A stretch of 64,000 nt of DNA from Escherichia coli (lineage in GTDB: Bacteria > Pseudomonadota > Gammaproteobacteria > Enterobacterales > Enterobacteriaceae): NCBI RefSeq assembly GCF_041886205.1, contig NZ_CP169029.1. One strand, 5' to 3'. The position numbers were made by a program, and so were the translations under genes. Position 1 is the stretch's first letter, and each line of letters opens with the position of its first letter. Positions 23,757 to 49,969 of this stretch are shown here, piece after piece. The notes under the pieces are model-generated. The model was given only the letters and a program-made list of their open reading frames with translations, was not told the DNA's origin and made no database searches.

Positions 23757-24455
23757 ATGAAAATCGGCATCATTGGTGCAATGGAAGAAGAAGTTACGCT
23801 GCTGCGTGACAAAATCGAAAACCGTCAAACTATCAGTCTCGGCGGTTGCGAAATCTATACCGGCCAACTGAATGGAACCGAGGTTGCGCTTCTGAAATCG
23901 GGCATCGGTAAAGTCGCTGCGGCGCTGGGTGCCACTCTGCTGTTGGAACACTGCAAGCCAGATGTGATTATTAACACCGGTTCTGCCGGTGGCCTGGCAC
24001 CAACGTTGAAAGTGGGCGATATCGTTGTCTCGGACGAAGCACGTTATCACGACGCGGATGTCACGGCATTTGGTTATGAATACGGTCAGTTACCAGGCTG
24101 TCCGGCAGGCTTTAAAGCTGACGATAAACTGATCGCTGCCGCTGAGGCCTGCATTGCCGAACTGAATCTTAACGCTGTACGTGGCCTGATTGTTAGCGGC
24201 GACGCTTTCATCAACGGTTCTGTTGGTCTGGCGAAAATCCGCCACAACTTCCCACAGGCCATTGCTGTAGAGATGGAAGCGACGGCAATCGCCCATGTCT
24301 GCCACAATTTCAACGTCCCGTTTGTCGTAGTACGCGCCATCTCCGACGTGGCCGATCAACAGTCTCATCTTAGCTTCGATGAGTTCCTGGCTGTTGCCGC
24401 TAAACAGTCCAGCCTGATGGTTGAGTCACTGGTGCAGAAACTGGCACATGGCTAA
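23757..24455 (+). CDS. mtnN: 5'-methylthioadenosine/S-adenosylhomocysteine nucleosidase (232 aa)
   Basis: [25 protein letters not shown]...; PNP/UDP phosphorylase family. Confidence 0.95.
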
Positions 24456-25955: not shown

Positions 25956-26300
25956 TTAGATGCTAAAGGAAGAACCGCAACCGCAGGTGCTTTTCGCGTT
26001 CGGGTTGGTCACGATGAAACGAGAACCTTCCAGTCCTTCGGTGTAGTCAACGGAACCGCCGACCAGATATTGCAGGCTCATCGGATCAACCACCAGGCCA
26101 ACGCCCTGTTTTTCGATGGTCATATCGCCTTCGTTCACCTGATCATCAAAGGTGAAACCATACTGGAAGCCGCTGCAACCGCCACCGGTGATATACACGC
26201 GTAATTTCAGATTCGGGTTATCTTCGTCAGCGATCAGGCTTTTAACTTTGTTGGCTGCTGCGTCGGTAAACTCCAGCGGCAGTGCTACGTCATCACTCAT
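25956..26300 (-). CDS. erpA: iron-sulfur cluster insertion protein ErpA (A-type carrier), 114 aa
   Basis: Start at [11 protein letters not shown] (ATG 26300, GGAG RBS); conserved Cys residues (..GGGCSGF.., ..CGCGSSF) of A-type carriers. Confidence 0.9.
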
Positions 26301-29342: not shown

Positions 29343-31325
29343 TTAACGGCTCTGCTTTCTCAACAAATAGATAAAATATGGCGCGCCGATAAAGGTTGAC
29401 AGCAGCCCCGCCGGGATCTGGAATGGAAACAGCACCATCCGCCCACACCAGTCAGCGAACACCAGCAATAAACCACCCACCAGCGCCGAAATTACGATGT
29501 GCGGCATCGTCCGTCGAAAGCCCATCATCCGCGCAATATGCGGTGCCATTAAACCAACAAAACTCAACGGTCCAATAGTCATCGTCGCGGTCGCCGTCAG
29601 GCAAGCCGCTAACAGCAGCAGCGCAATTCGCGTCGGCGTCAGCGCCATTCCTACGGCTCGGGCGGTATCACCACCCAGCGGTAAAATGGTCAGCCAGCGG
29701 CGGCACAGCGGGGTAATCGCCAGCAAAATCACCATCACAATTCCGGTGCGCCAGACCTGCGCATCGGTCGCGTTGTAGGTCGAACCGGAAATCCAGGTCA
29801 GCACTTGCGCCATTCGCGGGTCACCACTTGCCTGCAACATCATCAAAAGCATGGTGAACGCGGTACTTAACGCCATCCCCGCCAGTAACATGCGGTGTGG
29901 GGAAAATCCACCGCGTCCGGCGGCGATCATAATGATCAACAGCGTCACCGCCGCCCCGAGACTGCCTGCGGGTAACAGCCAGCCAAAGGCATTACCCGGT
30001 ACCAGAAACAGCATTAACACCACACCAAACGCCGCGCCGGAGCTAATCCCCAGCACTTCCGGGCTTGCCATCGGGTTGCCGGTCAGTCGCTGAATAATAC
30101 AGCCCGCTACCGCCAGCATGACGCCCGCAAACAGCGCCGCCATAATTCGCGGCCAGCGCCAGGGCATTAAATCCTCGAGCAACGCCCCGCTCGCCCACGT
30201 CCAGCCGTGCGCATCACGACCAAACGACAGCGCCACCACCACAGCCATCAACAACAGCACGCCGCCCGCGAGGGCAAACGCCAGCACATGTTGGCGTTCA
30301 GTCGCGACACGATCGTTAACCTTCATATCCGGCGCGCTAATGCTGCGTAAACGCGGCAGCAGCCACAGTAGCAGCGGCGCACCGATCAACGCAGTGACCG
30401 AACCGGTGGAAACTTCCATCCACACGCGAGTCAGCCAGAGGATGATTTGATCAGAAAGCCACAGAATTAACGCACCAATCAGCGACGCCAGCATCAACCG
30501 TGGCAACAAACGCCGCGCCCCCAGCATTTTTGCCAGCAGCGGCGCGAACAACCCGATAAAGCCGATAATCCCTACCGCATTCACCAGCAGCGCACTGATG
30601 ACTATCGCCAGCGACAGCGCCGCCAGACGCGCGAGCGACAAGGCCAGCCCGAGATTGCGCGCCACGCCATCATCAAGCCCCATCAGGGTTAACGGGCGAA
30701 GTAGCAATAACGTCAACATCACGCCGCCCAGCAACTGCGGCCATAAACGCTCAACGCCGCCCCAGTCGGTTTGCGTCAGCGTTCCGGTGCTCCACAGGAA
30801 CATGCTTTGCAGCTGGTCGTGATGGAAGATAACCAGTAGCTGATTAATTGCCCCGCAATAAAGGCTCACCACCAGCCCCGCGAGAATAAGCGTAACCGGC
30901 GAAAGCCGTTTCCCCCACGCGACGCCAAAGACGATTAAGCCAACGACACAAGCGCCCACCAGCGCGGCAAACTGGCTCGCCATAGCACCTGGGATCGCCC
31001 AAAGTGTGGTGACGGTAATTCCCAGTTGCGCGCCTGTAGCAACGCCAAGCGTCGTCGGCTCCGCCAGCGGGTTACGCAGCACTTGCTGAAACAGCACGCC
31101 CACCAGCCCCAGGCCCGCGCCCACCAGCAGCGAAATCGCCAGACGCGGCAACAAGCTGTAGTGAAAAATCATCTGCTCGATGACGTCAATATCCGGCGAC
31201 CAGGTGGCCTGCGCCCACTGGCTGCGCGGCAGCGCCTGCGAAAAAGTCATCCAGGTGAGCGCCGTAGCGGCAATCACCAACAGCGCCAGCAATAACGCCG
31301 GAAAAAGCGCAATTCGTTTACTCAC
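29343..31325 (-). CDS. fhuB: ferric hydroxamate ABC transporter permease FhuB (660 aa, internally duplicated)
   Basis: Two homologous FecCD-type permease halves in one 660-aa ORF; 4-nt overlap with fhuD. Confidence 0.95.
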   Translation of the reverse strand: MSKRIALFPALLLALLVIAATALTWMTFSQALPRSQWAQATWSPDIDVIEQMIFHYSLLPRLAISLLVGAGLGLVGVLFQQVLRNPLAEPTTLGVATGAQLGITVTTLWAIPGAMASQFAALVGACVVGLIVFGVAWGKRLSPVTLILAGLVVSLYCGAINQLLVIFHHDQLQSMFLWSTGTLTQTDWGGVERLWPQLLGGVMLTLLLLRPLTLMGLDDGVARNLGLALSLARLAALSLAIVISALLVNAVGIIGFIGLFAPLLAKMLGARRLLPRLMLASLIGALILWLSDQIILWLTRVWMEVSTGSVTALIGAPLLLWLLPRLRSISAPDMKVNDRVATERQHVLAFALAGGVLLLMAVVVALSFGRDAHGWTWASGALLEDLMPWRWPRIMAALFAGVMLAVAGCIIQRLTGNPMASPEVLGISSGAAFGVVLMLFLVPGNAFGWLLPAGSLGAAVTLLIIMIAAGRGGFSPHRMLLAGMALSTAFTMLLMMLQASGDPRMAQVLTWISGSTYNATDAQVWRTGIVMVILLAITPLCRRWLTILPLGGDTARAVGMALTPTRIALLLLAACLTATATMTIGPLSFVGLMAPHIARMMGFRRTMPHIVISALVGGLLLVFADWCGRMVLFPFQIPAGLLSTFIGAPYFIYLLRKQSR

Positions 31326-32212
31326 GCTTTACCTCCGATGGCGTTATCCAGAACGCGCACAAAGTGCATTGCCGAGAGCGTCGCACCATAAAACCAGACT
31401 GCAGGTACGCGCTGAAAGCGTCCGGCGCGGACAAACGGCATGGCCTGCCACAGCGGCGTTGCCATTAGCGCATCCATGTCTTTGCTGTTGTCGTGATCAA
31501 AACAGAGCACATCAACGTCTTTATACGCCGCCAGACGATCGATACTGACGGCGGTACTGCCCCAGAAGTTGGTTTCCCCTTGCCAGGCATTTGGGATGCC
31601 GTACTCATCGAGAATTTCCTGAAACAAGCTGTTTGGACCGAAAACCAGCATATGGCGCGGATCGATAAGCGTCGTCAGCAATAACGGGCGTGCACCACGC
31701 TTCACAAAGCGGGGTTTCATGCTGCGGATAAAGTCTTCATATTGCGCTAAATGCGTTTCTGCTGCGCTTTGCAGGTTAAGTAAATCTGCCATTTCCGTCA
31801 GCGATTTACGCGCCATCGCCAGCGGCTGTTTGCCGTCGCTGAAGTTAAATCCGCGACCCGGTGCAATACGTGCCAGCATTTCTGGTGAAGGGCCATATCC
31901 TGCCGACCAGACCATAAACGACGGTTTCATTTCGGTCAGCAGTTCAAGGTTAGGTTCTGTACGCAAACCAACGTCAATCACTGAGTCCGGCAATAGCGGT
32001 TCGCTGACCCACAGGCGATAGTTGATGGTATCCGCCACGCCGTAAGGCACGATGCCGAGCGCCAGCAGTAATTCCACCGGCAACCACTCCAGCGCCACAA
32101 TACGATTGGGATCAATAGCCACCGCGTGGGCGGTATTAATCTGCCATAACAACGGAGAAAGCGCCATCGCCGTTAACAGTCGACGGCGCGAAATAAGAGG
32201 TAAGCCGCTCAT
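31322..32212 (-). CDS. fhuD: ferric hydroxamate periplasmic binding protein FhuD (296 aa)
   Basis: Start at ATG 32212..32210 (MSGLPLISRRRLLTAMALSPLLW, Tat-like signal); the ORF-track start at 32215 is TTG. Confidence 0.9.
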   Translation of the reverse strand: MSGLPLISRRRLLTAMALSPLLWQINTAHAVAIDPNRIVALEWLPVELLLALGIVPYGVADTINYRLWVSEPLLPDSVIDVGLRTEPNLELLTEMKPSFMVWSAGYGPSPEMLARIAPGRGFNFSDGKQPLAMARKSLTEMADLLNLQSAAETHLAQYEDFIRSMKPRFVKRGARPLLLTTLIDPRHMLVFGPNSLFQEILDEYGIPNAWQGETNFWGSTAVSIDRLAAYKDVDVLCFDHDNSKDMDALMATPLWQAMPFVRAGRFQRVPAVWFYGATLSAMHFVRVLDNAIGGKA

Positions 32213-33009
32213 CAATAAACAAAACTCACAGGTGCAGCACCCGCCGGATGCGGCAAAATACCCATCGGGATGCCATAAATCATTTCGAGGGTTTCGCCGC
32301 GCATAATTTCCGCAGGCGTTCCCTGAGCAATCATTTCACCACCGCGCAGGGCGACCAGATAATCACAGTAGCGTGCCGCCATATTGATATCGTGCAGCAC
32401 GGCAATGACCGTCAGGCCACGTTTCTGACTTAAACGGTGCACCAGCGCCAGCACATCAACCTGGTGGGCGATATCCAGCGCCGAAGTCGGTTCGTCGAGC
32501 AACAGACAACGGCTATCCTGCGCCACCAGCATGGCGATCCACGCCCGTTGACGTTCGCCGCCAGAGAGACTATCGACCAGCCGATGCGCCAGCGGTTTTA
32601 AGCCAACCAGCGAGATAGCTTCCTCGACTTTTTCGCGATCTGCCGCACCAAAGCGCCCCAGCGCGCCATGCCATGGGTAACGACCAATCGCTACCAGTTC
32701 ACGCACGGTCATCCCTTCTGCCGGAGGAAGCTGCTGCGGCAAATAAGCCACTTTGCGGGCAAACGCTTTGCTGCTCCAGCTTTCCAGCGGTTGGGCATCA
32801 AGAAGAATCTCCCCTTCCGACGGCGGCTGATGACGGCCAAGCATTTTGAGCAGAGTGGATTTACCAGAACCGTTGTGACCAATCAGACCGGTCACTTTCC
32901 CGGCAGGAAAGGTTAACGACAGCGGATGCAAAAGCGTGCGCCCGGGCACACGAAAGGAGATATTACGCAGTGCAAAAGTGGTATCGGAATGATTCGTGTA
33001 TTCCTGCAT
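32212..33009 (-). CDS. fhuC: ferric hydroxamate ABC transporter ATPase FhuC (265 aa)
   Basis: Start at MQEYTNHSDTTF (ATG 33009); Walker A GHNGSGKST, ABC signature LSGGERQR, Walker B LLLDEP. Confidence 0.9.
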   Translation of the reverse strand: MQEYTNHSDTTFALRNISFRVPGRTLLHPLSLTFPAGKVTGLIGHNGSGKSTLLKMLGRHQPPSEGEILLDAQPLESWSSKAFARKVAYLPQQLPPAEGMTVRELVAIGRYPWHGALGRFGAADREKVEEAISLVGLKPLAHRLVDSLSGGERQRAWIAMLVAQDSRCLLLDEPTSALDIAHQVDVLALVHRLSQKRGLTVIAVLHDINMAARYCDYLVALRGGEMIAQGTPAEIMRGETLEMIYGIPMGILPHPAGAAPVSFVY

Positions 33010-33059
33010 AACAGCCAACTTGTGAAATGGGCACGGAAATCCGTGCCCCAAAAGAGAAA

Positions 33060-43660: not shown

Positions 43661-45058
43661 ATTTTTACCCGAGTCGCTAATTTTTGCCGCAAGGTGCTAA
43701 GCCGCGAGGAAAGCGAGGCTGAACAGGCAGTCGCCCGTCCACAGGTGACGGTGATCCCGCGTGAGCAGCATGCTATTTCCCGCAAAGATATCAGTGAAAA
43801 TGCCCTGAAGGTAATGTACAGGCTCAATAAAGCGGGATACGAAGCCTGGCTGGTTGGCGGCGGCGTGCGCGACCTGTTACTTGGCAAAAAGCCGAAAGAT
43901 TTTGACGTAACCACTAACGCCACGCCTGAGCAGGTGCGCAAACTGTTCCGTAACTGCCGCCTGGTGGGTCGCCGTTTCCGTCTGGCTCATGTGATGTTTG
44001 GCCCGGAGATTATCGAAGTTGCAACCTTCCGTGGACACCACGAAGGTAACGTCAGCGACCGCACGACCTCCCAACGCGGGCAAAACGGCATGTTGCTGCG
44101 CGACAACATTTTCGGCTCCATCGAAGAAGACGCCCAGCGCCGCGATTTCACTATCAACAGCCTGTATTACAGCGTAGCGGATTTTACCGTCCGTGATTAC
44201 GTTGGCGGCATGAAGGATCTGAAGGACGGCGTTATCCGTCTGATTGGTAACCCGGAAACGCGCTACCGTGAAGATCCGGTACGTATGCTGCGCGCGGTAC
44301 GTTTTGCCGCCAAATTGGGTATGCGCATCAGCCCGGAAACCGCAGAACCGATCCCTCGCCTCGCTACCCTGCTGAACGATATCCCACCGGCACGCCTGTT
44401 TGAAGAATCGCTTAAACTGCTACAAGCGGGCTACGGTTACGAAACCTATAAGCTGTTGTGTGAATATCATCTGTTCCAGCCGCTGTTCCCGACCATTACC
44501 CGCTACTTCACGGAAAATGGCGACAGCCCGATGGAGCGGATCATTGAACAGGTGCTGAAGAATACCGATACGCGTATCCATAACGATATGCGCGTGAACC
44601 CGGCGTTCCTGTTTGCCGCCATGTTCTGGTACCCACTGCTGGAGACGGCACAGAAGATCGCCCAGGAAAGCGGCCTGACCTATCACGACGCTTTCGCGCT
44701 GGCGATGAACGACGTGCTGGACGAAGCCTGCCGTTCACTGGCAATCCCGAAACGTCTAACGACGTTAACCCGCGATATCTGGCAGTTGCAGTTGCGTATG
44801 TCCCGTCGTCAGGGTAAACGCGCATGGAAACTACTGGAGCATCCTAAGTTCCGTGCGGCTTATGACCTGTTGGCCTTGCGAGCTGAAGTTGAACGTAACG
44901 CTGAACTACAGCGTCTGGTGAAATGGTGGGGTGAGTTCCAGGTTTCCGCGCCACCAGATCAAAAAGGGATGCTTAACGAGTTGGATGAAGAGCCGTCACC
45001 GCGTCGCCGTACTCGTCGTCCACGCAAACGCGCACCGCGTCGTGAGGGTACCGCATGA
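43661..45058 (+). CDS. pcnB: poly(A) polymerase I PcnB (465 aa), AUU start codon
   Basis: Nucleotidyltransferase motif [17 protein letters not shown]; start assigned to ATT 43661..43663 preceded by GAGG, following the published AUU initiation of pcnB; ORF-track TTG start 43640 is 7 codons upstream. Confidence 0.85.
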
Positions 45059-46573: not shown

Positions 46574-47317
46574 ATGACCAGGACGCGTCAGTTACTCCTT
46601 GCTTCACTTTTCACCTGCGCAGGTGCATTAGCCAGCTTTTCTGCCTGTGCCGATATTGTGCTTTCCGGCACGCGTATTATTTACAACGCAAACCAGAAAG
46701 AAGTCTCCCTGCGTATGGAAAACAAAGGCAGCCGCCCGCTGCTGGTACAAACCTGGATCGATACCGGGAGTGAAAACGCGGATCCCAGCACCATCACCGT
46801 GCCTTTTACCGTCACGCCACCGGTCTCTCGTGTGGACGGTAAACGTGGGCAGACGGTGAAAATCGCCTGGAATACCAGCCAAACGTTGCCCGCCGATCGC
46901 GAAAGTGTTTTCTGGTTCAATGCGCTGGAAGTCCCCCCCAAAATGAGCGAGACCGAGGCTCAGGGGAAAAATATCCTGCAACTGGCGTTCCGCACCCGCA
47001 TCAAGCTGTTTTATCGCCCGGCTAACCTGGTCGGCAGCGCCCCGGACGCCCCCAAACAACTGACCTGGCATCTGCAATCCTCTGGCGGGAAAGTTGTGCT
47101 TCAGGCCACTAACCCAACGCCATTTCACGTCTCTTTCAGCAGCATTAGCCTGATTTCGGGCGGAAAAAAATACGCCGTCGACGCCACGATGGTCTCCCCA
47201 AAAAGCAGCGCTGACATGACAGTGAAAGGTCTGAGCACTGCATCTGCTGGTGCAACGATTGAATATACCGCCATTAATGACTTCGGCGGTGCCATTGAAG
47301 GCAAAGTGAAGCTTTGA
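46574..47317 (+). CDS. yadV: PapD-like periplasmic fimbrial chaperone (YadV/EcpD-type)
   Basis: Start at MTRTRQLLLASLFTCAGALA (ATG 46574, AAGGA RBS); PapD-like two-domain chaperone. Confidence 0.85.
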   Translation: MTRTRQLLLASLFTCAGALASFSACADIVLSGTRIIYNANQKEVSLRMENKGSRPLLVQTWIDTGSENADPSTITVPFTVTPPVSRVDGKRGQTVKIAWNTSQTLPADRESVFWFNALEVPPKMSETEAQGKNILQLAFRTRIKLFYRPANLVGSAPDAPKQLTWHLQSSGGKVVLQATNPTPFHVSFSSISLISGGKKYAVDATMVSPKSSADMTVKGLSTASAGATIEYTAINDFGGAIEGKVKL

Positions 47318-47347
47318 CGCACTGACTAACTACGCAGGGATTGCACA

Positions 47348-49969
47348 ATGACGACGCCTTTCAACGGCACAAAATTTCCCCTCTCTCCACTCGCTTGTCT
47401 GGTGGCGTTCAGTCTGCTGCCCTGCGCCTACAGCGCCATGGCGGCAGAGGAAGCTGTTGAATTTGATAACACCTTCCTGATGGGGGCCGGTGCCAAAAAT
47501 ATCGACGTCAATCGCTACAGTGATGGCAACCCCGCATTGCCAGGCCGTCACGACGTAAGCGTGTTTATCAACAATAAGCCGATCAGCAATCTGTCCATGG
47601 AGTTTATTGAAATAGCGAATAGCCGTAGCGCCAAACCCTGTATCTCTGCCAGCACCCTGCTCCAGCTGCATATTCGCCTGCCGGATAATCTCGACGATAC
47701 GGCGATTTTGCAAAAGCGCGACAGTACCGCGCAGGACTGTCTTAATCTTGAGGTCGCCATTCCCCAGTCCAGCCTCACCTATAACAGTAACGATCAGCGG
47801 ATGGACATTAATGTGCCTCAGCTGTGGTTACAAAAAACTTACGCTAACTATGTGGATCCTTCCCTGTGGGACGAAGGGATCAACGCAGCCATGTTTTCTT
47901 ACACGCTGAATGGCTGGCGCAGTGAATCGCCCGATCAAACCGCAGAGAGTACCTATGCCGGGCTGATGGGCGGCTTTAATTTATGGGGATGGCATTTCCG
48001 TTCGCACGGCAACTATTCATGGGACAAAGAGAGTGGCGGCAGTTTCGAGTTCCAGGACAAGTACCTGCAACGTGATATCACCAGGCTGCGGTCACAACTG
48101 GTTGTCGGTGAAACCAACACTACGGGGGAAACCTTTGATTCCGTTCGTATTCGCGGTGTTCGTCTCTACAGCGAAAGCCGCATGCTGCCACCGACGCTCG
48201 CCTCTTACGCGCCGGTGATCCGTGGGGTCGCGAACTCCAACGCCAAAGTAACAATTACCCAGAACGGCTACAAGATTTACGAAACGACGGTGCCGCCAGG
48301 CCCCTTTGCTATCGATGATTTGTCGCCAGCCGGATTTGGTGCCGATCTCGAAGTCACGGTCACCGAGTCTGACGGCTCACAGCGAACATTCACTCAGGCC
48401 TATTCGTCGGTGATCCAGATGATGCGCCCCGGCGTGGGCAAATGGGACATCAGCGCGGGTGAAATCAAAAAAGATGAGCTGAAGGACAAGCCCAATCTGA
48501 TACAGGGAACGTACTACTACGGGTTAAGTAATACGTTTACCGGCTATACCGGCCTGCAAATGACCGATAACGGCTACTGGGCCGGATTGTTAGGCCTTGG
48601 GATGAACACCTCATTGGGGGCATTTTCTCTTGATGTGACGCAGTCGCACACCGAAATCCCCAACGACAAAACCTATGAGGGCCAGAGCTACCGTATTTCG
48701 TGGAACAAATATTTTGCACCGACCGAAACGTCACTCAACATTGCGGCCTATCGCTACTCGACAAAAAACTATCTCGGTTTGAACGACGCCCTGACGCTGA
48801 TCAACGCTGCTAACCATCCTTATGATGAAGGTTACAAGGGAATCGTCTCCTATGGGCGTATGAAAAACCAGTTCAGCGTCAGCCTCAACCAGACGTTAAA
48901 AAATAGCGAGCGGGATTATGGTTCCTTCTACTTGAACGGGACATGGACGGACTACTGGGCCACTAATGAATCACAGAGTAGTTTTGCGTTTGGTTACAGC
49001 AGCGGCTTTGACTGGGCCAGCTACAGCGTCAGCCTGCAACGTACCTATGACGAAGACAATAACAAAGATGACTCTATCTATCTCAGCCTGACCATTCCGC
49101 TGGACAAACTGTTCGGCAGCGATAGCCGCGAAGGTGGCTTTAGGACACTGAATACCAGCGTCAACAGCGATATGAAGGGCAGTTCGCAATACAACGCTAA
49201 TGCCACCGGCTACAGCCAGGACAACCGCTGGAACTACAGCGTCAACACCTCCTATAACGCATTGAAAGAGACGGAAAGCCTGAAAACCATCAGTGGTTTC
49301 ACCAGCTATGAGTCACCCTGGGACACCCTTTCCGGTTCCGTCTCCGCCAGTAGCGACCACAGTCGTCAGTATGGCGTGAGTACCGATGGCGGCTTTGTGT
49401 TACATCGCCACGGGCTTACGTTCAGTAACGACAGCTTTACCGATTCAGACACGCTGGCGCTGGTCAACGCCCCCGGCGCGAAAGGTGCGCAAATTAACTT
49501 TGGCAGCAGTACCGTGGACCGATTTGGCTACGGGGTAACCAGTGCGCTTTCTCCGTATCATGAAAACACCGTCGCCCTCAACGTGGACAACCTGGATGAA
49601 GATGTGGAACTGAAAAGCACCAGCACCGTCGCGATCCCGCGCCAGGGTGCGATTATCTTCAGCCATTTCGACACCGACACCGGGCGTTCAGCCATTCTTA
49701 ACCTGCTGCGCAGTGATAAGCAGCCCGTACCGTTTGCTTCCGATGTGACAGACAGCAGCGGGCAGTCCATCGGCACAGTTGGGCAAGGGAGCCAGGCTTT
49801 CGTTCGCGGCATTGCCGACGAAGGGGAGCTGGTGGTTTCCTGGTATGAAAAAAATAGCCAGAAACAGTGCCGCATTCACTACCAGATACCGCCCTCTCCC
49901 ACCATGACGGGCAAAACTATCGTATTAAACGCCGTGCCCTGCACCCTGCAATCACAGGAGAGGAAATGA
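47348..49969 (+). CDS. htrE: fimbrial outer membrane usher HtrE (873 aa)
   Basis: 873-aa ORF with signal peptide and usher-size beta-barrel protein between chaperone and minor subunits. Confidence 0.9.
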   Translation: MTTPFNGTKFPLSPLACLVAFSLLPCAYSAMAAEEAVEFDNTFLMGAGAKNIDVNRYSDGNPALPGRHDVSVFINNKPISNLSMEFIEIANSRSAKPCISASTLLQLHIRLPDNLDDTAILQKRDSTAQDCLNLEVAIPQSSLTYNSNDQRMDINVPQLWLQKTYANYVDPSLWDEGINAAMFSYTLNGWRSESPDQTAESTYAGLMGGFNLWGWHFRSHGNYSWDKESGGSFEFQDKYLQRDITRLRSQLVVGETNTTGETFDSVRIRGVRLYSESRMLPPTLASYAPVIRGVANSNAKVTITQNGYKIYETTVPPGPFAIDDLSPAGFGADLEVTVTESDGSQRTFTQAYSSVIQMMRPGVGKWDISAGEIKKDELKDKPNLIQGTYYYGLSNTFTGYTGLQMTDNGYWAGLLGLGMNTSLGAFSLDVTQSHTEIPNDKTYEGQSYRISWNKYFAPTETSLNIAAYRYSTKNYLGLNDALTLINAANHPYDEGYKGIVSYGRMKNQFSVSLNQTLKNSERDYGSFYLNGTWTDYWATNESQSSFAFGYSSGFDWASYSVSLQRTYDEDNNKDDSIYLSLTIPLDKLFGSDSREGGFRTLNTSVNSDMKGSSQYNANATGYSQDNRWNYSVNTSYNALKETESLKTISGFTSYESPWDTLSGSVSASSDHSRQYGVSTDGGFVLHRHGLTFSNDSFTDSDTLALVNAPGAKGAQINFGSSTVDRFGYGVTSALSPYHENTVALNVDNLDEDVELKSTSTVAIPRQGAIIFSHFDTDTGRSAILNLLRSDKQPVPFASDVTDSSGQSIGTVGQGSQAFVRGIADEGELVVSWYEKNSQKQCRIHYQIPPSPTMTGKTIVLNAVPCTLQSQERK

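Follow-up and report, generated by a model that had tools for sequence, protein, structure and literature searches.

Overlapping stop and start codons of fhuC, fhuD and fhuB in Escherichia coli: conservation, start-site anatomy and a probable role in translational coupling

Do the overlapping stop and start codons of fhuC, fhuD and fhuB in Escherichia coli tie the synthesis of the three proteins together, and do they by themselves identify the start codons? We considered both questions in a window of 64,000 nucleotides, meaning the whole stretch of DNA analysed. The three genes lie 3' of fhuA on the minus strand and are co-directional; their spacings of -1 and -4 leave not a single untranslated base between neighbours and so no space for an intervening promoter or terminator. 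For co-transcription we follow the literature, which speaks of the 'fhuACDB operon'. The genes, their junctions and three further overlaps in the window are located as follows.

32212..33009, minus strand: fhuC coding sequence, 265-aa ABC ATPase, ATG 33009..33007 and TGA 32214..32212 (translation, NCBIfam, RefSeq and K-12 annotation)
31322..32212, minus strand: fhuD coding sequence, 296-aa periplasmic binding protein, ATG 32212..32210 and TGA 31324..31322 (translation, NCBIfam, annotation)
29343..31325, minus strand: fhuB coding sequence, 660-aa fused double permease, GTG start 31325..31323 (translation, NCBIfam)
32210..32214, minus strand: junction 1, fhuC/fhuD, TGATG; one A is common to stop and start (-1 spacing, 1-nt overlap)
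31322..31325, minus strand: junction 2, fhuD/fhuB, GTGA; TG is common to the fhuB GTG and the fhuD TGA (-4 spacing)
31332..31336, minus strand: fhuB Shine-Dalgarno (SD) sequence GGAGG, 6 nt 5' of the GTG, within Gly-Gly codons of fhuD
32213..32229, minus strand: SD-poor, U-rich run-up to the fhuD start (GTGAGTTTTGTTTATTG), with a weak anti-SD duplex and low opening energy
45055..45058, plus strand: pcnB/folK ATGA overlap, identical in K-12
49966..49969, plus strand: usher (htrE-like)/yadM-like ATGA overlap, allele-specific, replaced by a 16-nt spacer in K-12
59199..59202, minus strand: yadG/yadH ATGA overlap, identical in K-12; it reads ATGATG, so that a second in-frame ATG makes a -1 overlap too

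The three products belong to the Fe(3+)-hydroxamate ABC importer FhuCDB, each matching its NCBIfam equivalog model end to end and above the curated cutoff (FhuC, 577.6 bits vs 433, residues 1-265 aligned to 1-265; FhuD, 548.5 bits vs 252, full-length alignment; FhuB, 1416.6 bits vs 1107, residues 1-660 aligned to 1-660), and the RefSeq product names concur. The original fhu sequences were reportedly published by Koster and Braun 1986, Burkhardt and Braun 1987, and Coulton et al. 1987. Our coordinates equal those in the RefSeq/PGAP annotation of NZ_AP045833.1, a near-identical genome with 8 mismatches over the 64 kb, and the K-12 MG1655 counterparts are fhuC 169778-170575, fhuD 170575-171465 and fhuB 171462-173444. 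The comparison with curated annotation that a preliminary description of this DNA had asked for yielded identical fhu starts and stops in RefSeq and K-12 MG1655. A search for terminator-like patterns near junction 1 found a single one, inside the fhuC coding sequence, with a match number not above that in shuffles, and an Rfam search across the fhu operon gave no match at E <= 1. A hairpin between fhuA and fhuC might act as an attenuator.

Read on the minus strand, junction 1 runs ...TTT GTT TAT TGA, then TG, and both this sequence and the annotation bear out the TGATG that the preliminary description had placed at 32210..32214. Junction 2 reads GGAGGTAAAGCGTGAGT; here the 4-nt overlap proposed at 31322..31325 stood, but its assignment to the ATGA type did not, given that the motif is GTGA with a GTG start. 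The range given there for the fhu overlaps ended at 33009, the A of the fhuC ATG. The same description had regarded the overlaps as expected operon features, and we agree: stop/start overlap in fhuCDB is known biology, an ordinary and published operon feature that leaves current understanding unchanged. The cryo-EM paper that describes the fhuCDB operon (Hu and Zheng 2021; PMC8660799) notes that the genes share nucleotides and reports a stable holo-complex, FhuD-FhuCB; it contains no comparative or SD analysis, and the contrast between the junctions and their conservation in 81 sequences are documented here.

In taking the overlaps to establish true start codons where open reading frames over-extend, the preliminary description went too far. 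By chance, NTG overlaps occur at about one quarter of stops: ATG, GTG or TTG overlapped 14 of the 57 stops in the window at -4, four of these being real starts, and ATG overlapped 7 of 57 at -1, one being a real start, so that the two sets together held only five real starts. Because the bare motif is this cheap, overlaps alone do not fix start codons; reading frame context and conservation do. Moreover, the motif is ambiguous at two junctions. An in-frame TTG at 32215..32213 also makes TTGA at junction 1, so that TTGATG holds two candidates sharing a frame, TTG at -4 and ATG at -1; ATGATG at yadG/yadH likewise holds one ATG at -4 and another at -1. With two in-frame candidates at each, the overlap cannot pick between them. 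For fhuD, the ATG is settled as the start because it is present in 81/81 enterobacterial sequences, whereas the TTG at 32215, present in only 32/81, was ruled out. No in-frame start candidate exists 5' of the fhuB GTG at 31325. These results confirm the fhuD ATG at 32212 and the fhuB GTG at 31325 as start codons, and the fhuC start is ATG in all 81 species sequences. The largest over-extension of an open reading frame was that of fhuC, by 14 codons, at a site that is not at any overlap.

As a gene spacing, -4 is nevertheless non-random, being found at exactly this value in 4/45 same-strand pairs of the window (P ~0.002 against a uniform distribution over -10..+30, and ~5e-6 over the whole range). 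Spacings from -8 to +6 accounted for 10/45 window pairs (22%), and for 707/2,987 co-directional pairs (24%) in the E. coli genome (PMC10666635), where -4 is the commonest spacing, followed by -1 and -8 (PMC10666635; PMC12548453). Encoding a heteromeric ABC importer and having one junction at -1 and one at -4, fhuCDB is a typical member of this short co-directional overlap class and does not differ from it.

Across 80 enterobacterial species (81 sequences, >20 genera), the junction architecture was fixed. Junction 1 was T[GA]ATG in 81/81 (56 TGATG, 25 TAATG), with the fhuD ATG always kept and its frame uninterrupted as far as the FhuD match; the fhuC stop is TGA in some sequences and TAA in others, but the A that it shares with the ATG never changes. 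Junction 2 was [AG]TGA in 81/81 (45 ATGA, 36 GTGA), fhuB starting with ATG or GTG at this position throughout. Despite this architecture, the 81 sequences differ in the stop (TGA/TAA), the start (ATG/GTG), the flanks and the opening residues of FhuD and FhuB. Conservation of the junctions is, however, partly forced and to that extent limited as evidence for coupling: any indel there disrupts one or other of the overlapping genes, and a gene that loses its start is inactivated, coupled or not.

The first Gly codon of the fhuB SD was GGA in 70/81 sequences, GGG in 11/81 and GGC or GGT in 0/81, GGA thus making up 86% here vs 9.4% of Gly codons elsewhere in fhuCDB. The last fhuD Ala codon was GCA or GCG in 78/78 Ala codons, although GCC or GCT is used for 33% of Ala in the rest of fhuCDB. 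Such codon choice maintains GGAGG and the purine of the fhuB start. At the end of fhuC, the Val codon at -5 was only GTG or GTA, and the Phe codon at -3 was TTT in 77/81. Synonymous entropy at the key junction codons was low, yet other codons of the same genes reach comparable values. The idea of a synonymous constraint spanning the region ahead of the junctions was rejected: averaged over the final 8 codons, normalised entropy hardly fell below that of the preceding 37 (fhuC 0.61 vs 0.65, fhuD 0.54 vs 0.62), and only individual codons stood out.

The two fhu junctions differ in their initiation sites. The fhuD start is SD-poor, open and U-rich, with an anti-SD duplex of -2.2 kcal/mol (rank 56 of the 57 genes of the window) and a predicted opening energy of its initiation region of 3.9 kcal/mol (rank 45/57). 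The fhuB start combines a strong SD with a structured context, its anti-SD duplex being -10.8 kcal/mol (rank 2/57) and its opening energy 13.6 kcal/mol (rank 2/57), which places the E. coli site among the most base-paired initiation regions predicted in the window. Pairs coupled at a stop/start overlap typically, though not always, carry an SD motif within the upstream gene; here there is GGAGG for fhuB and practically no SD motif for fhuD. As a group, overlapped starts were more occluded than others (median 8.3 vs 5.1 kcal/mol, p=0.03, n=7).

Given that fhuD has almost no SD, that the junction architecture is kept in 81/81 and that reporter experiments revealed strict coupling in 4/5 native E. 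coli -4 pairs (PMC6728339), we infer that the most probable function of the overlaps is to couple translation of fhuC, fhuD and fhuB by termination-reinitiation. By sequence, both junctions (TGATG and GTGA) fall within the class of stop/start-overlap pairs. A ribosome finishing fhuC would halt at UGA with the fhuD AUG one base off (UGAUG), and this ribosome or its 30S subunit would re-initiate on the spot; most FhuD would be made in this way because the fhuD AUG has no usable SD and lies in an open U-rich stretch. A ribosome finishing fhuD would in turn halt at the UGA of GUGA, and re-initiation at GUG would be aided by GGAGG 6 nt 5'. Since the fhuB site is predicted to be highly base-paired, ribosomes on fhuD would probably also open it, and entry of free 30S subunits would be poor. 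The output of all three subunits would then be tied to one initiation event at fhuC, favouring assembly of the FhuC2-B-D complex. Genome-wide, subunits of heteromeric complexes are enriched 4.5-fold among pairs with short spacing (PMC10666635). A literature search for experimental coupling or start-site data on fhu returned nothing specific, and neither of the coupling papers PMC6728339 and PMC12548453 mentions fhu.

Alternatively, fhuB and perhaps fhuD could be initiated mainly de novo by free 30S subunits, with overlaps that are incidental to tight packing. The fhuB SD, second-strongest of 57 genes and well spaced, could permit initiation like that of bioBF, one of the five tested E. coli pairs, which initiates de novo despite its ATGA overlap (PMC6728339); the open, U-rich fhuD site can support SD-independent entry, and we found no selected masking structure. 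Independent initiation nevertheless seems unlikely to us in view of the near absence of an SD at fhuD (56/57), the cost of opening the E. coli fhuB site (13.6 kcal/mol) and the strict coupling of four of the five tested -4 pairs. Coupling through RNA unfolding alone, a model established for other pairs (PMC12548453), would draw on this same high fhuB opening energy and on the E. coli centroid fold, in which the fhuB GGAG and GUG pair with fhuB codons 5-9; a CU-rich stretch occurs 15-25 nt into fhuB in many species. We rejected, however, a conserved hairpin that would mask both the SD and the start of fhuB. Junction folds were not more stable than shuffles (z = -0.25 and +0.19), RNAalifold returned no consensus structure at the junctions, the E. 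coli SD-masking hairpin had no covariation support (69.4% of cells paired vs 69.6% in shuffles), and an alignment-free test of opening energy against codon-shuffled controls found no excess of SD occlusion (40/77 species). Of the features expected of a stable conserved structure masking the downstream SD or start, only the high opening energy of E. coli fhuB was found. Given that the fhuD start is predicted to be open, unfolding alone cannot explain junction 1, and we consider it very improbable as the full account.

The overlaps might also have arisen by drift of stops and starts and persisted without any regulatory role, as undoing them damages a gene. The frequency of the motif by chance, at about one quarter of stops, and the necessarily deleterious effect of indels within the overlap are compatible with such neutral lock-in, and at the yad usher/yadM junction one allele has an overlap where another has a 16-nt spacer. 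However, synonymous choices keep a strong SD 6 nt 5' of the fhuB start (GGA at 86% vs the 9.4% background), the A of the ATG is retained while the fhuC stop alternates between TGA and TAA, and -4 and -1 spacings are in excess genome-wide, with enrichment for complex subunits (PMC10666635), and we consider neutral lock-in very improbable.

The termination-reinitiation proposed for fhu has parallels among gene pairs studied by experiment. Like fhuC/fhuD, trpB-trpA of the E. coli trp operon has TGATG at -1 spacing between genes for subunits of one complex, and it is the founding example of translational coupling (PMC6728339, PMC12548453). There coupling was demonstrated experimentally, and the title of a study cited in PMC12548453 indicates that efficient coupled expression requires a ribosome-binding sequence; in contrast, fhuD is almost without SD. 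As trpB-trpA reportedly has this need, SD-less fhuD may simply be poorly translated. Like fhuD/fhuB, the pairs of Huber et al. 2019 (hyfHI, astDB, ydbH-ynbE, menDH and the exception bioBF) have -4 NTGA with an SD in the upstream gene, and termination-reinitiation was deduced from premature-stop reporters (PMC6728339). Unlike these ATGA pairs, fhuB starts with GTG in E. coli (ATG in 45/81 relatives), and fhu lies outside their tested set.

More tentatively, the two junctions might be distinct devices, with SD-independent reinitiation at UGAUG and SD-assisted reinitiation at GUGA together setting FhuC:FhuD:FhuB ratios, although we regard this as doubtful. As part of such an arrangement, the conserved GUR-AGY-UUU run-up to fhuD could be a non-SD reinitiation or standby element. 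Most ABC importers make their binding protein in excess; two devices, if real, would mean fixed ratios for a transporter that keeps its binding protein docked.

The practical value of these observations is limited to confirmation of starts, caution in mutant design and a test pair. Any in-frame deletion or insertion made in fhuC or fhuD has to leave the final codons and the junctions intact if polar effects on the downstream subunits are to be avoided, and the contrasting natural pair within one operon (SD-less at -1, strong SD at -4) offers a possible test case for the SD need of reinitiation.

Elsewhere in the window, 8-nt overlaps at mtnN/btuF and yadW/erpA were absent from the preliminary list. 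The ATGA overlaps that it did name at pcnB/folK, htrE/yadM and yadG/yadH are all present in this strain, but that at htrE/yadM does not extend to K-12, where the htrE stop and yadM start are 16 nt apart; YadM of the window is 32% identical to K-12 YadM, and the overlap holds for this strain's divergent allele.

The window is E. coli chromosome; apart from 8 mismatches over its 64 kb, it equals NZ_AP045833.1 727891-791890 in reverse complement. The range 31322-33009 covers the minus-strand genes fhuC and fhuD. An annotation comparison showed that the gene positions in the preliminary description coincided exactly with those of PGAP and the curated K-12 MG1655 record.

Genes of the ferric-hydroxamate importer, as placed by PGAP on a near-identical genome and by the curated K-12 MG1655 record
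32212-33009, minus strand, fhuC (ATPase)
31322-32212, minus strand, fhuD (periplasmic binding protein)
29343-31325, minus strand, fhuB (fused permease)

Translation yielded full-length FhuC (265 aa), FhuD (296 aa), and FhuB (660 aa), each aligning over its whole length with its NCBIfam equivalog model and exceeding the curated cutoff. The segment occurs in 5,424 of the 5,426 complete E. coli genomes.

The overlapping stop and start codons previously proposed for fhuC-fhuD-fhuB were borne out by sequence and annotation, with small corrections. At the first junction, the coding strand reads GTT TAT TGA, then TG, and the fhuC TGA (32214..32212) and fhuD ATG (32212..32210) have one base in common. 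At the second (GGAGGTAAAGCGTGAGT), the fhuB start (31325..31323) and fhuD TGA (31324..31322) have two bases in common, resulting in a 4-nt gene overlap. Because fhuB starts with GTG, this junction is GTGA rather than the literal ATGA with which it had been grouped; in this strain, pcnB/folK, htrE/yadM, and yadG/yadH do overlap by ATGA. The arrangement is a textbook configuration and already known: trpB-trpA has the same TGATG motif as fhuC/fhuD, NTGA is the commonest gene spacing in prokaryotes (PMC12548453), and a cryo-EM study of FhuCDB remarked on the overlapping nucleotides, proposing that co-translation should favour holo-complex assembly (PMC8660799). No experiment testing fhu coupling directly turned up in our literature search.

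Chance expectation was evaluated over the 57 complete genes of the window. A 4-nt overlap (-4) by ATG, GTG, or TTG occurred at 14 of 57 stops, four of them annotated starts, and a 1-nt overlap (-1) by ATG at seven, one of them annotated; as a bare motif, the overlap is thus not beyond chance. As gene spacing it is, with exactly -4 in 4 of 45 co-directional pairs (P ~0.002, assuming a uniform spread over -10..+30). Spacings of -8 to +6 accounted for 10 of the 45 pairs (22%), near the published 24% for E. coli (707/2,987; PMC10666635). Given that the motif is frequent by chance, overlaps alone do not fix start codons, and the assertion that they do was over-stated: at fhuC/fhuD, TTGATG contains a -4 TTG and a -1 ATG that share a frame, and at yadG/yadH, ATGATG offers two candidate ATGs. 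No overlap is involved where the fhuC ORF is over-extended by 14 codons.

A single scan across species-representative genomes recovered 80 fhuD loci with FhuD 71-97% identical, belonging to Escherichia, Citrobacter, Salmonella, Klebsiella, Enterobacter, Kosakonia, Kluyvera, and others; together with the window, this gave 81 sequences. The first junction was TGATG (56) or TAATG (25) and the second ATGA (45) or GTGA (36) in 81/81. Given that FhuD and FhuB are highly variable in their initial residues across these loci, this invariance does not reflect mere overall similarity. For fhuD, all 81 sequences have an uninterrupted reading frame from the overlapped start into the protein match; for fhuB this holds in 80/81, with a homopolymer frameshift in one assembly. 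This 1-nt shift, in Leclercia adecarboxylata NCTC13032 (locus L053, ~3500-3515), falls in G/C homopolymer runs close to codon 38 of fhuB; an assembly error is the probable cause, a pseudogene the alternative. TTG directly preceded the fhuD ATG in no more than 32/81, evidence for ATG as the start rather than the upstream TTG. The Gly codon at fhuD -4 was GGA in 70 and GGG in 11 of the 81 sequences, never GGC or GGT, while GGA makes up 9.4% of Gly codons elsewhere in the fhu genes. Codon choice at this position preserves GGAGG, and that of the last fhuD Ala codon (GCA or GCG only) the ATG/GTG start of fhuB, with the caveats that the 81 sequences share descent, that overlaps are mechanically difficult to undo, and that synonymous entropy is equally low at a few other codons.

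Citrobacter youngae, C. gillenii, and C. portucalensis (L010, L012, L015) carry a 75-nt in-frame insertion at the 5' end of fhuB, directly after codon 4 (~3400-3475 of each locus), resembling an inverted REP element pair (GCCGGATGGCGGCG...CGCCTTATCCGGCCTAC plus inverted copy), with the GTGA overlap and Shine-Dalgarno (SD) sequence intact. These species would have either a FhuB with a 25-residue REP-encoded N-terminal insert or a start shifted downstream.

The fhuD start has the second-weakest anti-SD pairing of the 57 genes (-2.2 kcal/mol) and lies in an open, U-rich stretch (opening energy 3.9 kcal/mol); the obvious source of initiation would be a ribosome that has just terminated at the UGA, a single base from the AUG. 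The fhuB SD is the second-strongest (-10.8 kcal/mol, 6-nt spacer), and its initiation region ranks second for occlusion in E. coli (13.6 kcal/mol). These features are consistent with SD-assisted re-initiation and limited access for free subunits. The structural side of this model is weak: junction folds were no better than shuffles, no consensus structure or covariation was found at the junctions, and occlusion across 77 species was not higher than in codon-shuffled controls. The main rival is independent initiation, chiefly for fhuB. In reporter assays, four of five native E. coli -4 pairs were strictly coupled and one was a de novo exception, with a variable role of the SD (PMC6728339), and short-spacing pairs are 4.5-fold enriched for complex subunits (PMC10666635). 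Based on these reporter results and this enrichment, we consider translational coupling in some form at both fhu junctions quite probable; its earlier proposal, though inferred, was reasonable.

The 50-nt fhuA-fhuC spacer (33010-33059) contains a hairpin at 33029-33048, minus strand (GGGCACGG, loop ATTT, CCGTGCCC), which folds better than shuffles (z = -2.0), is present in 64/64 distinct enterobacterial sequences, and shows compensatory changes at 2/7 pairs (15 sequences have G-C in place of A-U, and 5 have A-U in place of G-C). A U-run follows it in most species, the E. coli tail being weaker (AUUUCA), and Rfam contains no matching family. The hairpin resembles an intra-operon attenuator or 3' stabiliser, which would raise fhuA output over fhuCDB. 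A stable ~700-nt 3' fhuA fragment has been described in a pcnB mutant (PMC5389530).

Two 8-nt overlaps, mtnN/btuF (24448-24455, plus strand) and yadW/erpA (26293-26300, minus strand), are annotated in K-12 too and were absent from the preliminary description. K-12 has 16 nt between htrE and yadM, and the YadM-like protein of the window is only 32% identical to K-12 YadM; therefore, the htrE/yadM overlap is a property of a divergent fimbrial-cluster allele. This cluster (46574-52973, plus strand; yadN-htrE-yadMLKC in K-12) also differs in gene spacings and in its usher (2622 vs. 2598 nt in K-12). At yadG/yadH (59197-59202, minus strand), the two ATGs are successive and in frame, at -4 and -1 to the yadG TGA, and the first is the annotated yadH start. 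The annotated pcnB start (43661, plus strand) is a non-canonical ATT, a known oddity of this gene and invisible to a mechanical ORF list.
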